DNA of 27,065 nucleotides from Promethearchaeota archaeon (GTDB lineage Archaea; Asgardarchaeota; Thorarchaeia; Thorarchaeales; Thorarchaeaceae): the NCBI GenBank assembly GCA_027031765.1, contig JALVPN010000181.1, positions 1 to 27,065 of the forward strand, given 5' to 3'. The notes beneath the pieces are model-generated. The model was not told the origin of the DNA, searched no databases, and was given only the letters and a program-made list of their open reading frames with translations. Shown here piece by piece: positions 57-3,761 of the stretch (positions within the stretch are counted from its first letter, which is position 1; each line of letters starts with the position of its first letter). The position numbers were made by a program, and so were the translations under genes.

Positions 57-1271
57 TCACCACTCTTCTTCTGGCAGGTCGTGCGGATGGTCGTCCTCGC
101 CCCCTTCGTAGGCGAAGTACTGGCCCCCACGGAGTGGGCTGAACTCGCGGAGGCGTTCAACAGTGGGTACCAGCGCCTCTACGAAGGCGTCAATCTCGGC
201 CTGTGTGTTGAACCGCGACAGTGAGACACGTAGGGAACCGTGGGAAATCTCTGGTGGCAGTCCGACCGCCTTGAGCACATGGCTCCCCTGCAGGGTCTTC
301 GACGAGCACGCTGAGCCAGTTGAGACCGCGAAGCCTTCCGTGTCGAGGTGTACGAGCATCGACTCGCCCTCCACCTGTTCGACGACCATGCTGAATATAT
401 GTGGCACCCGCCGGGTGGGGTGCCCGGTGAGCCTGTAGTCCGTGAGCGTCTCGGCAATCTTTGCCGCAAGGTAGTCCTGCAGAGCGGCAATCCGTTCGTT
501 GTCAGCCGGGTCCCAAAGCTCCACAGCCCGTGCGAACCCAACAGCACCGGGGATGTTCTCAACACCGGGCCGCAGTCGCCGCTCCTCGTCGCCGCCCTCC
601 ATTATCCTCCTGATCTTCGTCCCCCTGCGGATGTAGAGTGCGCCGATGCCCTTGGGACCATGGATGTGGTGTGCATCAAACGTAGTCAGGTCAACGGGCA
701 GCGTGGTCACATCAATGGGGACACGCAGATAGCTGTGTGTTGCGTCCATGTGGAAGAGGACACCGTGCTCGGACGTGATACGGCCAATCTCTTCAACAGG
801 CTGGAGCGTCCCGATCTCGCCGTTCGCGTGCTGGACTGACACGAGGACCGTGGTGTCCCGGATGACCTCTTCAAGCGCTGAGGGGTCCACCATCCCGTAC
901 TCGTCGACACCCAGTACTGTCACCTCGAAGCCGTCAGCCTCAAGTGCCTTGCATGTCCGCAGCACCGACTGGACCTCCACAGCACTGGTGATGATGTGGT
1001 CACCGCGCGCCCTGTTCGCCAGGGCCGCCCCACGAATGCCCAAGTTGTTGGACTCTGTTGCACCCGACGTGAACACAATCTCCCGCGGGTCGGCCCCTAT
1101 TGAAGCTGCTATCGTCTTCCGGGCACTCTCAAGGCCCCTGACGGCAGCCACATCCCTTGAGTGGCTCAGTTCCAGGCCCGCCGTACCGACATGCTCCCTG
1201 AAATATGGCAGCATGGCCTCAATTACCCGCTCATCAACAGGTGTCGAGTTAGCATTGTCAAGATACGCCAT
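57..1271 (-). CDS. iscS: IscS/NifS-like (class V PLP aminotransferase fold) cysteine desulfurase homolog, probably catalytically atypical
   Basis: Family motifs present: YLDNxxxTP, IVFTSGATESNN, EIGTLQP, HxDA, HGPKGIGALY, AVSTGSACSS (Cys322), SLRVSLSRFNT. GGGGTGA Shine-Dalgarno lies 7 nt before the ATG. The PLP-binding Lys, His and Gln positions are substituted (see findings). Confidence 0.9.
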   Translation of the reverse strand: MAYLDNANSTPVDERVIEAMLPYFREHVGTAGLELSHSRDVAAVRGLESARKTIAASIGADPREIVFTSGATESNNLGIRGAALANRARGDHIITSAVEVQSVLRTCKALEADGFEVTVLGVDEYGMVDPSALEEVIRDTTVLVSVQHANGEIGTLQPVEEIGRITSEHGVLFHMDATHSYLRVPIDVTTLPVDLTTFDAHHIHGPKGIGALYIRRGTKIRRIMEGGDEERRLRPGVENIPGAVGFARAVELWDPADNERIAALQDYLAAKIAETLTDYRLTGHPTRRVPHIFSMVVEQVEGESMLVHLDTEGFAVSTGSACSSKTLQGSHVLKAVGLPPEISHGSLRVSLSRFNTQAEIDAFVEALVPTVERLREFSPLRGGQYFAYEGGEDDHPHDLPEEEW

Positions 1272-1277
1272 TCCAGT

Positions 1278-1673
1278 TCACCCCACGCTACAGGCCGTGC
1301 AGCCCTCATGCACACCCTCGGAGTACCGGCGATGAATGTCGCACAACAGGCCAGACTTGTGGAACAGCCGTATCAGTCGGTTGATCTCGCGCGTCATGAC
1401 CTCGTATGCCCGGCCCGGAGGCGGGTCGTCGGCCCAGGCCATGACTATGCGTTCGGCAGCCCGCTCGATGTCCTTGTGGAACTCGCTTGGGATTTCTATT
1501 TGGTCACCACGCGACCTGCTCGACCGTTCGATCTTGTACTGTGTGACAGCCGGCTCCGTCACACCCAGCATCCTCGCTATGTCCTTCTGTAGGATTCCAC
1601 GCGCAATCATCACACGTGTGAGCTCCCGCCGGATGCTCGGCAAGACGTACCAGACCTCAATCTCCTGTGGCAT
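1278..1673 (-). CDS. Archaeal HTH transcriptional regulator (COG2522-like) with a C-terminal CxxH...CxxC motif
   Basis: MPQEIEVWYVLPSIRRELTRVM...LQKDIARMLGVTEPAVTQY is an XRE-like HTH. The C-terminus is LCDIHRRYSEGVHEGCTAC. The gene ends 6 nt before the iscS-like start. The start was trimmed from the ORF track's 2006 to the ATG at 1673. Confidence 0.85.
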   Translation of the reverse strand: MPQEIEVWYVLPSIRRELTRVMIARGILQKDIARMLGVTEPAVTQYKIERSSRSRGDQIEIPSEFHKDIERAAERIVMAWADDPPPGRAYEVMTREINRLIRLFHKSGLLCDIHRRYSEGVHEGCTACSVG

Positions 1674-1749
1674 GAGCCATGTCCTGCGCTTCCTCTGCCG
1701 CTGCACTGTTCCAGTCTCTGACAAGTGGACGACCTCTCTAAAGTACCCA

Positions 1750-1778
1750 TTCACTATAGTGAAGCCACTGTGATATAA
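1750..1778 (-). promoter_or_regulatory. Putative promoter (TTATAT, 1778-1773) with a downstream perfect 14-bp palindrome TTCACTATAGTGAA (1750-1763), a candidate operator
   Basis: The palindrome was read directly from the sequence. It lies between a TATA-like box and the expected transcription start of the regulator-iscS unit. Confidence 0.5.
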
Positions 1779-2120
1779 GGGTGACGACATGACCATTGTC
1801 ACCACGTGCCGCGGACACGTCGGACGCAACGGAGTCAGGAGGCCTTGATGTCGGTCCAGTGCAGTTGTCATGTGAGGACTACGGACTACACTGTGCCGTC
1901 GGGCCCACCATCTGACGACACTGCAGATGTGACAGGCCTGCCCACGAGGCCGCACGAGTCCATCCCAGCAGACGCCGAAACGGGCCACACGGTATACTGG
2001 GGCCACAATAGCTCAGATAACAGCTGGCCATCCGGGCCGTGGTGTCAGAAAAAGTGTGGGTGCGCACCCCGGAGCCCAGATGGACGCCCGGGGCTGCACA
2101 CGCGGTACTTGATGGGGCCA

Positions 2121-3761
2121 TCAACTGGAGCGGAGTCGTGCGAGGTTGAACACAGCGCCGAGGCCCACCAGACCGAGGACTATGCCTGTCAGCGGCCAGC
2201 CCGCCGAGATGCTGTTCATGAACAGGTCTGACAGGCTCGGCACGACCCTGAGGCCGGCGTCGCGGATGCTCTTCGTGTAGCTCTGGCCCTCGAAAGTGTA
2301 CGTCACCCGGCCATCGAAGAACCCGTACACACCCTCATACTCAGGCACCACCGTATACGTGAGGCTGGTCTCCGCACCAGGCGCCAATGACGGGACGTGG
2401 GCCACAAGACTACCATCAACACTCAGCTGCGGGTATACTTCGGTAAGACGGGCATCGCTGATCTCAATGTCACTGATGGTGTCGCTGCCGGCATTTGTGA
2501 CCGTGATTGTGACCGTGACCGGAGAGCCCACCGTAGGGCTGGCAGGCGAGAACGTCCTTACGGCCTGCACAAGGGGGGGGTACGAGGTCTCGTTGAAGTG
2601 GACGATGTAGTCAGACTGAGGGCCGAGCATAGAGGCCGCCCAGAAGGCCGTCCCATCGGTGTAGTAGCTGTGGTTCGCATCGTAGGGCTCAATGCCCGTG
2701 ATGCTAGTGTCCCCCATGTCAATGGCCACAATGGACATGCCCTGGGATGTCGAACTGAAGGGGGTGATTGTGCCTGTCGACCCGATTGCATCGCTGAGTA
2801 ACATCTCTGTGTCGCCGGCCTGCACGATCTGGTCGCGGACGAACCCGCCAATGCCGACGGCAACAGGCCCCTGTACTTGTGGGGCCTGAGCAATGACGTA
2901 GTCGACAAACCCGTGGCGAGGCCGGTTCATGCTGCTGGAACTAACGAGGCCAACCAGGTCTTCGATGTGCGGCAGACCAACAAGTGCGGCAGCAGAGCCA
3001 GGAGCACTGACGAACAGGTCAGCGTCCATTGCCGTGAGCATGCCCCCGGTAGTGAACGTGCCGACGATGTTCTGGATGAGCTGGCTCATTGGGTTGGAAA
3101 GGGTGTATACGAACAAATCAAGGGAGCTGATATTGCTGCCACCAGTGTTGTTCCCGCCACCAGGGAACATTGACTCATCAAGTCGAATTGAGAACACGCT
3201 CGAAACAGATATGGCAAGCGGTGACCCTGCAAGCTGTTGGACGACCTGTGCCATCCTGCCCGCTGCGACACCCTCCTCAAGGTCCATGTACACACCGACA
3301 ACAATGCTGAACTCGTCGCCGAGGTAGTCAATGATGTCACCAGGACCGCCTATGCCGCCGTCCTGTGCCGGGGCAAACCCCAGGTCACCGGGACCACTAT
3401 CATTGCCACCCATACCCATGAGCTCGAACAAGTAGTCGAGGAGCTCGCCACGGACCGCGAGCACCGCCACAGCGAGACAGCCATCATACATGTCCGCGTC
3501 AAGGTTGAAGACCCCCGTCACACCGGGCAGGGCAATCTGGCCATACAGTACAGCGGGCCGGCCCTCACTGTCAACGTGAGTGTAGATCACTTCTGCCCCG
3601 GACTCTATCAGTTGCGGGAGCATCTCCATTGGGCCTTGGGAAGACCCGGTCACGACAACGGGACCTGGAGGCAGCAGCACAGACGTAGCCACTGGGAGTA
3701 CAAGGAAACCGACCATGAAGAGGAGTGCCAAAGACTCTGTACGAAGACGCATTACCAACAA
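2121..3761 (-). CDS. Secreted, C-terminally membrane-anchored protein with a C-terminal DUF11/BatD/TRAP-beta-like Ig domain
   Basis: N-terminal signal-like helix (RLRTESLALLFMVGFLVLPV). Ig-like segment VRTFSPASPTVGSPVTVTITVTNAGSDTISDIEISD...SLAPGAETSLTYTVVPEYEGVYGFFDGRVTY. C-terminal TM (GWPLTGIVLGLVGLGAVFNL) followed by ARLRSS. GGAGGT SD present. Confidence 0.75.
   Translation of the reverse strand: MLVMRLRTESLALLFMVGFLVLPVATSVLLPPGPVVVTGSSQGPMEMLPQLIESGAEVIYTHVDSEGRPAVLYGQIALPGVTGVFNLDADMYDGCLAVAVLAVRGELLDYLFELMGMGGNDSGPGDLGFAPAQDGGIGGPGDIIDYLGDEFSIVVGVYMDLEEGVAAGRMAQVVQQLAGSPLAISVSSVFSIRLDESMFPGGGNNTGGSNISSLDLFVYTLSNPMSQLIQNIVGTFTTGGMLTAMDADLFVSAPGSAAALVGLPHIEDLVGLVSSSSMNRPRHGFVDYVIAQAPQVQGPVAVGIGGFVRDQIVQAGDTEMLLSDAIGSTGTITPFSSTSQGMSIVAIDMGDTSITGIEPYDANHSYYTDGTAFWAASMLGPQSDYIVHFNETSYPPLVQAVRTFSPASPTVGSPVTVTITVTNAGSDTISDIEISDARLTEVYPQLSVDGSLVAHVPSLAPGAETSLTYTVVPEYEGVYGFFDGRVTYTFEGQSYTKSIRDAGLRVVPSLSDLFMNSISAGWPLTGIVLGLVGLGAVFNLARLRSS

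Follow-up and report, generated by a model that had tools for sequence, protein, structure and literature searches.

IscR, an Rrf2 protein of Escherichia coli and other bacteria, is encoded by the first gene of an iscS operon, is autoregulated, and carries a Cys3His ligand set within about 16 to 18 residues; it controls Fe-S assembly genes together with a wider regulon. SufR (ArsR/DeoR-like) and RirA (Rrf2), which are also bacterial, act on Fe-S assembly and iron-uptake genes through a promoter operator. The literature that we searched describes no transcription factor for archaeal Fe-S cluster biogenesis, and a 2026 review on how Fe-S clusters are made gives no regulator for the MIS system, which it describes as "the least studied." We analyzed a 27,065-nt stretch of DNA from a Thorarchaeota genome (here called the window; the genome is G000) that contains a helix-turn-helix (HTH) gene predicted to resemble IscR in each of these respects. 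The encoded protein differs from IscR in having an XRE-like HTH and a helical hairpin instead of an Rrf2 domain, its ligands follow the order C-x2-H-x10-C-x2-C rather than C-x5-C-x5-C-x2-H, and its 14-bp palindrome is unrelated to the type 1 or type 2 sites of IscR. Its family is archaeal and unrelated to SufR and RirA, and its likeness to them, which includes control of sufB in DPANN archaea and of iron-uptake genes, is a prediction. Comparative sequence evidence is what supports the gene, its ligand motif, the conservation of its operator, the membership of its regulon, and a protein-DNA covariation. We describe the gene and its junction with iscS from the following features of the window.

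1278 to 1724, minus strand: regulator coding sequence, 148 aa from TTG 1724 or 131 aa if started at ATG 1673, with a TGA stop at 1280 to 1278.
1733 to 1738, minus strand: putative Shine-Dalgarno (SD)-like AGAGGT read from the sequence, 8 nt before TTG 1724.
1272 to 1284, minus strand: junction of regulator and iscS, with a 6-nt spacer (1277 to 1272) and an SD-like GGGGTGA (1284 to 1278) over the regulator stop.
57 to 1271, minus strand: IscS-like (MisS-type) gene, matching Aminotran_5 at 6.6e-72 and falling below the NifS/IscS equivalog cut-offs.

An earlier note on this DNA had placed an HTH gene 6 nt upstream of the iscS-like gene on the same strand, and the coordinates, when re-read on the minus strand, agree: the iscS-like ATG lies at 1271 to 1269 and the regulator stop at 1280 to 1278, a gap of exactly 6 nt. 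The arrangement suggests an operon junction, across which the regulator and iscS may be cotranscribed. The start that the note had implied, ATG 1673, is probably wrong. In the alignment, homologues (mostly 145 to 160 aa) keep a basic segment, K-(R/K)-R-T-W-L, upstream of Met 1673, and TTG 1724 falls where relatives start, with ATG or GTG, in the pattern (A/G/T)TG-TCA-GA(A/G); because of these two features and the AGAGGT element, the true start is probably TTG 1724, giving a leader of about 26 nt. The IscS-like protein has His at the position of the pyridoxal phosphate (PLP)-binding lysine (FDAHHIHGPKG) and retains the persulfide Cys (STGSACSS). The window covers the beginning of contig C181, which ends 56 nt after the iscS stop, so nothing beyond iscS can be read. 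On the other side, about 400 nt of noncoding DNA (1725 to 2120) separate the regulator from a codirectional gene at 2121 to 3761 (minus strand) for a 546-aa protein with a hydrophobic segment at its N terminus and another at its C terminus. A search of the window against Rfam gave no match.

Two parts of the protein bear on its function.

1533 to 1589, minus strand: HTH, residues 46 to 64, with model helices at 46 to 53 and 57 to 64 and the recognition helix TEPAVTQY.
1290 to 1343, minus strand: metal-ligand motif C128-x2-H131-x10-C142-x2-C145, reading LLC-DI-H-RRYSEGVHEG-C-TA-C-SVG.

The description of the product as a non-Rrf2 HTH protein held up under profile searches. Pfam and NCBIfam returned no family above threshold and only weak XRE/Cro HTH matches, over residues 16 to 50 of the 131-aa form. 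Rrf2 (PF02082) gave no match for the window protein at an E of ≤1 and was absent from the top families of 52 homologues, and the Fur-family domain (PF01475) matched neither the window protein nor these 52. HTH_3 (PF01381) scored 14.9 bits for the window protein against a gathering score of 23, whereas 43 of the 52 homologues matched it at an E of ≤0.01 (best, 1.2e-08); we therefore regard the protein as HTH_3-like but divergent. It has in common with XRE/Cro proteins a DNA-binding HTH, to which its C-terminal metal domain is an addition. We found 286 close homologues, nearly all labelled Thorarchaeota, and an exhaustive search gave 535 cluster representatives (E ≤ 0.001) of about 115 to 125 aa. 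Representatives with names are Woesearchaeota or Hodarchaeales proteins called "transcriptional regulator" or "hypothetical," and JGI has named some homologues "predicted transcriptional regulator."

The AlphaFold2 model of the regulator is confident and all helical (pLDDT, 93.2), with a long helix at residues 19 to 41, the HTH at 46 to 64, a helical hairpin at 80 to 124, a helix carrying C128 and H131, and a loop leading to C142 and C145. A profile search of the PDB brought up nothing but weak Cro matches and designed helical repeats for the family, and Foldseek had no match at an E of ≤0.001 for either the full-length model or its C-terminal domain. A wide VIA-align comparison gave best Z scores of 6.3 (Bcl-2-like bundles) and 6.0 (a helical hairpin), which are at noise level, and the ESM Atlas returned only unnamed archaeal clusters. 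CsoR/RcnR proteins (including CstR and FrmR), which are three-helix bundles with a conserved C-H-C site, are likewise all-helical sensors with Cys and His at helix ends, but they have no HTH, the regulator has no sequence or Pfam match to them, and the weak resemblance of its C-terminal domain model to them (Z, 5.2 to 5.6; root mean square deviation, 5.4 to 6.0 Å) does not rise above the noise expected of helical hairpins. The whole protein has no match among solved structures, and the C-terminal metal domain lies outside every Pfam model. Literature on COG2522 (which an unrelated paper mentions), archaeal isc regulators, the MIS and SMS systems, and oxidative stress in Thorarchaeota contained no characterization of the regulator. 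A family that pairs an XRE-like HTH and helical hairpin with a Cys3His (sometimes Cys4) site at the C terminus has no earlier description in the literature searched.

The C-x2-H-x10-C-x2-C motif is found at the C terminus as first proposed (codons 1343 to 1290), and the Cys3His set holds family-wide in about 100 homologues. C128 and C142 are invariant in 101 aligned sequences, and conservation of H131 and C145 is 90% or higher. Several DPANN members (L169, L172, L173, L166, L177, and L179) have Cys in place of H131, giving C-x2-C...C-x2-C, and two others (L078 and L168) have Ala at this position with a Cys or His nearby. The exchange of His and Cys at the second ligand is the pattern expected for a metal ligand. 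Four such ligands within 18 residues would fit a structural or redox-active zinc as well as an Fe-S cluster. In the zinc-associated anti-sigma (ZAS) factor RsrA and the CxxC protein SurR, too, a site of the Cys3His or CxxC kind goes with regulation of thioredoxin- and peroxiredoxin-type genes, but RsrA is an anti-sigma factor and not a DNA binder, SurR is an ArsR-type winged-HTH protein, and we detected no homology of either to the regulator. C-terminal zinc knuckles are common among archaeal DNA-binding proteins, and sequence data do not reveal the cofactor, so the site might be purely structural, with the signal read elsewhere (from a ligand in the hairpin or through a protein partner such as IscS or IscU) or with the protein acting as a constitutive autoregulator. 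We consider this very unlikely, given that a protein of 115 to 150 aa has no second sensory domain and that the coherent, conserved iron, Fe-S, and redox regulon described below argues for a matching signal.

The promoter of the regulator and iscS contains two further elements.

1772 to 1779, minus strand: TATA-like box CTTATATC of the regulator-iscS promoter, read from the sequence.
1750 to 1763, palindromic, so without strand: putative operator TTCACTATAGTGAA, a perfect 14-bp palindrome (TTCAC-TATA-GTGAA) that follows the TATA box and precedes the expected transcription start.

As the earlier note had reported, the palindrome is perfect and lies just downstream of the TATA-like box; on the coding strand, TTCACTATAGTGAA begins 9 nt beyond CTTATATC. 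The exact 14-mer is present once in the window, even when up to three mismatches are allowed, where 0.34 copies are expected and 29 of 100 shuffled sequences have at least one. Its degenerate form, TTCACWATWGTGAA, occurs once in the whole 2.95-Mb genome (59% G+C) and zero to three times in each of 41 related genomes, with the reversed control pattern found in only two genomes. We examined 80 regulator loci from species-representative genomes and found the same order of a TATA box (CTTATTAG or CTTATATG), a palindrome, and a start codon, with a CTTAT[AT][AT] element upstream of the operator in most of them. The strict form TTCACWATWGTGAA is present in 39 of 64 usable Thorarchaeota-type regulator promoters and the relaxed form TTMACNATNGTKAA in 42 of the 64, versus none in matched downstream control regions; the rest have degenerate operator copies at the same position. 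The operator is conserved whether or not iscS comes next after the regulator. The site is present in most of 30 DPANN loci examined, and in DPANN, Methanosarcinales-labelled, and Hodarchaeota loci, it takes the form TTAAC-NATN-GTTAA, often in tandem, right after the TATA box and a few nucleotides before the start. The palindrome is thus kept at the same promoter position upstream of orthologues in two phyla, Thorarchaeota and DPANN. In several relatives (L105 to L107, L087, L092, and L094 to L096), a gene for a Sir2/CobB-type deacylase is divergent from the regulator, with the operator in their common intergenic region; this arrangement is seen in many Thorarchaeota and is absent from the window.

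The operator follows the TATA box in every promoter examined and sits at the expected start site or just ahead of it. Archaeal repressors that block RNA polymerase recruitment have operators downstream of the TATA box, at or near the start site, and the palindrome is therefore in the position of a repressor site. The recognition helix also varies with the operator. All 41 loci with TTCAC/GTGAA arms encode Thr in the helix (A-[VI]-T-Q-Y; Thr61 in the window protein), all 16 loci with TTAAC/GTTAA arms encode Ser, and the loci with mixed operators have Thr in 12 cases and Ser in 8. This tracking of the C or A at arm position 3 is what direct readout by the regulator predicts, and it is supportive evidence, confounded by phylogeny in that the two classes largely follow it. 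It also bears on the idea that another factor binds the palindrome and that the HTH gene is a mere target. Binding of the operator by the regulator rests on sequence comparison, and genome G024 has a strict site before a Bcp peroxiredoxin gene where our regulator search gave no match; that genome, however, is only 85% complete. The site also stands in the regulator's own promoter across two phyla, a recognition-helix residue tracks an arm base, and motif enrichment is confined to the regulator-carrying family, and we consider binding by another factor extremely unlikely.

The linkage of the regulator to iscS and iscU, which the note had proposed to check, is found in Thorarchaeota, DPANN, and Methanosarcinales-labelled metagenome-assembled genomes (MAGs). 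The iscS gene is directly downstream of the regulator in 33 of the 80 loci, mostly with a gap of 8 to 21 nt (81 nt in L002 and up to 179 nt), and in the 6 of these 33 that are DPANN or Methanosarcinales labelled, iscU follows iscS. In the DPANN phylum to which genome G042 belongs, 107 of 151 sampled genomes of 0.5 to 2 Mb carry the family, nearly always as a single copy. The iscS gene comes directly after the regulator in 17 of 30 DPANN loci, and iscU is its neighbor in another 3; where a DPANN genome has both the regulator and IscU, the two are within 6 kb in 72 of 90 cases. The presence and absence of the regulator and IscU across DPANN genomes are weakly correlated (odds ratio, 2.2; P = 0.07). 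Among genomes of the same family as G000, 23 of 24 have the regulator, and only 10 have the lysine-less iscS orthologue (61 to 69% identity) next to it. These numbers, and the presence of the operator before genes other than iscS, run against the proposal that the regulator is dedicated to iscS. In Thorarchaeota relatives without the adjacent iscS, the regulator is followed directly by an enoyl-CoA hydratase gene, which elsewhere follows iscU. We considered SufC and SufB as identities for the open reading frames (ORFs) of about 245 and 327 aa downstream of the regulator in iscS-less loci and rejected them, as Pfam assigned these ORFs to enoyl-CoA hydratase, amino-acid kinase, and RidA.

Other Fe-S assembly genes have the operator as well. 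The iscU gene of G000 is on another contig (C151, 9044 to 9400), with the enoyl-CoA hydratase gene next to it, and an operator-like palindrome, TTAACAGTTGTTAA, lies about 40 nt upstream of iscU (C151, 9044 to 9460; locus L151). The minimal MIS (MisS/MisU) system consists of an IscS-like desulfurase and an IscU-like scaffold with no accessory isc genes. The iscS and iscU genes, adjacent in relatives, are separated in G000, yet both keep the operator site. All 12 relatives that we examined (L194 to L205) have a second operon, tusA-iscS-iscU, with iscU detected in 11 of the 12 and with an iscS paralogue 41 to 47% identical to that of the window; in all 12 operons, a TATAAG box is closely followed by a site near the consensus, TTAAC-NATN-GTTA(G/A/T). 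This type of iscS paralogue was not found in G000 (95% complete) at an E of ≤1e-60. The search for the palindrome at other Fe-S genes, a further check named in the note, thus found it before iscU, iscS, tusA-iscS-iscU, and sufB.

We defined the consensus operator as TT(C/A)AC-NATN-GT(G/T)AA and a form with a free center as TTMAC-N4-GTKAA. G000 has four sites of the relaxed motif and eight when the central 4 nt are left free, and six of the eight TTMAC-N4-GTKAA sites are close to a TATA box, with a start codon 5 to 40 nt downstream, before Fe-S, iron, or redox genes.

C181, 1750: regulator and iscS downstream.
C151, 9442: iscU, then enoyl-CoA hydratase, downstream.
C22, 6726 (L149): ferritin downstream, in the order TATA box, operator, SD/start.
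C80, 13290 (L084): 72-aa DUF1858 (CxxC) protein downstream, in the order TATA box, operator, SD/start.
C190, 17199 (L082): DUF438-hemerythrin-PAS_10 protein downstream, in the order TATA box, operator, SD/start.
C174, 21336 (L083): 698-aa thioredoxin-like DUF255 protein downstream, in the order TATA box, operator, SD/start.

No operator was found upstream of sufCB in G000. Across 16 genomes of the same family, G000 included, the relaxed motif has 146 matches, versus 6 for the reversed control, and outside the family it has 15 versus 11. Copy number is highest in G005 (34) and G002 (25), compared with 1 to 11 in the other family members; the regulon may have expanded there, or the motif may be part of a repeat element. 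From about 50 fetched sites, with ORFs called by a simple procedure of our own, we counted the following genes downstream of the operator; as the relatives are not independent, the counts overstate the support.

AhpC/TSA (Bcp) peroxiredoxin: 8 genomes.
FTR1 iron permease: 4.
Ferritin: 3, plus G000.
DUF255 thioredoxin-like protein: 3.
NnrU-like protein: 3.
Two uncharacterized families: 3 each.
Pirin: 2.
HMA P-type ATPase: 2.
TusA: 2.
MerA-like protein, DUF1059, DUF302, and UspA: 1 each.

In two relatives, L088 (G022) and L090 (G009), strict palindromes precede genes for a UspA-like universal stress protein and an 83-aa uncharacterized protein. Five DPANN genomes have 12 sites, which include 3 before the regulator (one of them common with a divergent sufB), 3 before sufB, 2 before FTR1, and 1 before iscS. 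The core of the regulon common to the two phyla is therefore Fe-S assembly and iron uptake, to which Thorarchaeota are predicted to add iron storage and oxidant and thiol defense. The IscR-like role first proposed for the regulator is consistent with this picture in that the operator is present in its own promoter and at Fe-S assembly promoters; the restriction to iscS is not, since the predicted regulon is wider.

The thiol and oxidant defense genes in the Thorarchaeota regulon (Bcp in eight genomes, DUF255, a MerA-like reductase, DUF1858, and UspA) would suit a regulator with the same operator and targets whose Cys3His site is a zinc thiol redox switch, as with the ZAS motif of RsrA or the CxxC of SurR, in which an oxidant forms a disulfide, zinc is released, and the repressor leaves the DNA. 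The C-x2-H...C-x2-C arrangement also resembles Cys3His zinc-thiolate switches. We consider such a switch unlikely, since the core common to the two phyla is iscS, iscU, sufB, and FTR1 and not thiol repair, and since DPANN hosts, despite their tiny genomes and the mostly anaerobic life that they lead, keep the regulator beside Fe-S genes.

The reading that we prefer, and hold to be somewhat probable, is that the protein is an autoregulated repressor of an Fe-S, iron, and redox regulon, belongs to a new archaeal family, and senses iron or Fe-S status through a labile Fe-S cluster (or Fe). We infer that a dimer of the regulator would bind the 14-bp palindrome just downstream of the TATA box and block recruitment of RNA polymerase. 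The two 5-bp arms, 9 bp apart from center to center, would fit a dimer on successive major grooves, and a basic N-terminal arm specific to Thorarchaeota could contact the A/T-rich center of the operator. The content of the regulon points to a signal of iron or Fe-S status, or of damage done to it by oxidants, and the Cys3His site would read this signal through its labile cluster (or Fe). Repression would be due to the holo protein, and a shortage of Fe-S clusters or an oxidant would lead to cluster loss and to derepression of the genes for cluster assembly, iron handling, and antioxidant defense. A labile cluster with a holo repressor would explain autoregulation, control of both assembly systems and of FTR1, and induction of ferritin, peroxiredoxin, and hemerythrin upon cluster loss. 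Points against this reading are that sufCB of G000 lacks the operator, that the regulator and IscU are only weakly correlated across DPANN genomes, and that control of ferritin and an iron permease by one repressor is awkward for a pure iron sensor.

The predicted regulon is also like those of PerR and Fur, which include peroxiredoxin, ferritin, metal ATPase, and iron-transport genes together with autoregulation. The same operator and regulon could therefore belong to a PerR- or Fur-like protein with mononuclear Fe(II) as the corepressor, derepressed by iron loss or metal-catalyzed oxidation, and four ligands close together in the sequence might hold such an iron. We judge this quite unlikely: Cys-rich mononuclear sensory sites are unusual, and those of Fur and PerR are rich in His, Asp, and Glu, whereas the ligands here are Cys rich and C-terminal; the regulator has no Fur-family domain; and the tight linkage is to Fe-S scaffold genes and not to iron transport. 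The comparison with known systems points to a regulator that would work like IscR, SufR, or RirA, with a regulon that overlaps that of PerR, outside the Rrf2 and Fur families.

The family is also present in MAGs labelled Methanosarcinales (two), Hodarchaeota, and Hermodarchaeota, and in protein-atlas clusters in which Thermoproteota is the commonest phylum; protein-atlas matches also include Nitrososphaerota clusters. We tentatively suggest, as a possibility somewhat short of an even chance, that the regulator is the founding example of archaea-wide master regulators that sense Fe-S clusters and have a novel fold, set over both ancestral assembly systems (iscS and iscU of MIS, sufB of SMS) and over iron uptake and storage, as a convergent and maybe early-archaeal counterpart of IscR, SufR, and RirA. 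Its presence as a single copy beside Fe-S genes in most sampled DPANN genomes of 0.5 to 2 Mb suggests a core function. The outcome of the analysis is a candidate regulator with a defined 14-bp operator, a predicted regulon, and a specificity residue. The predicted regulon of Thorarchaeota takes in genes for peroxiredoxin, ferritin, hemerythrin, and thioredoxin-like proteins and so is relevant to the way in which Asgard archaea deal with oxygen, and the regulator is a candidate for the missing regulator of archaeal Fe-S biogenesis.
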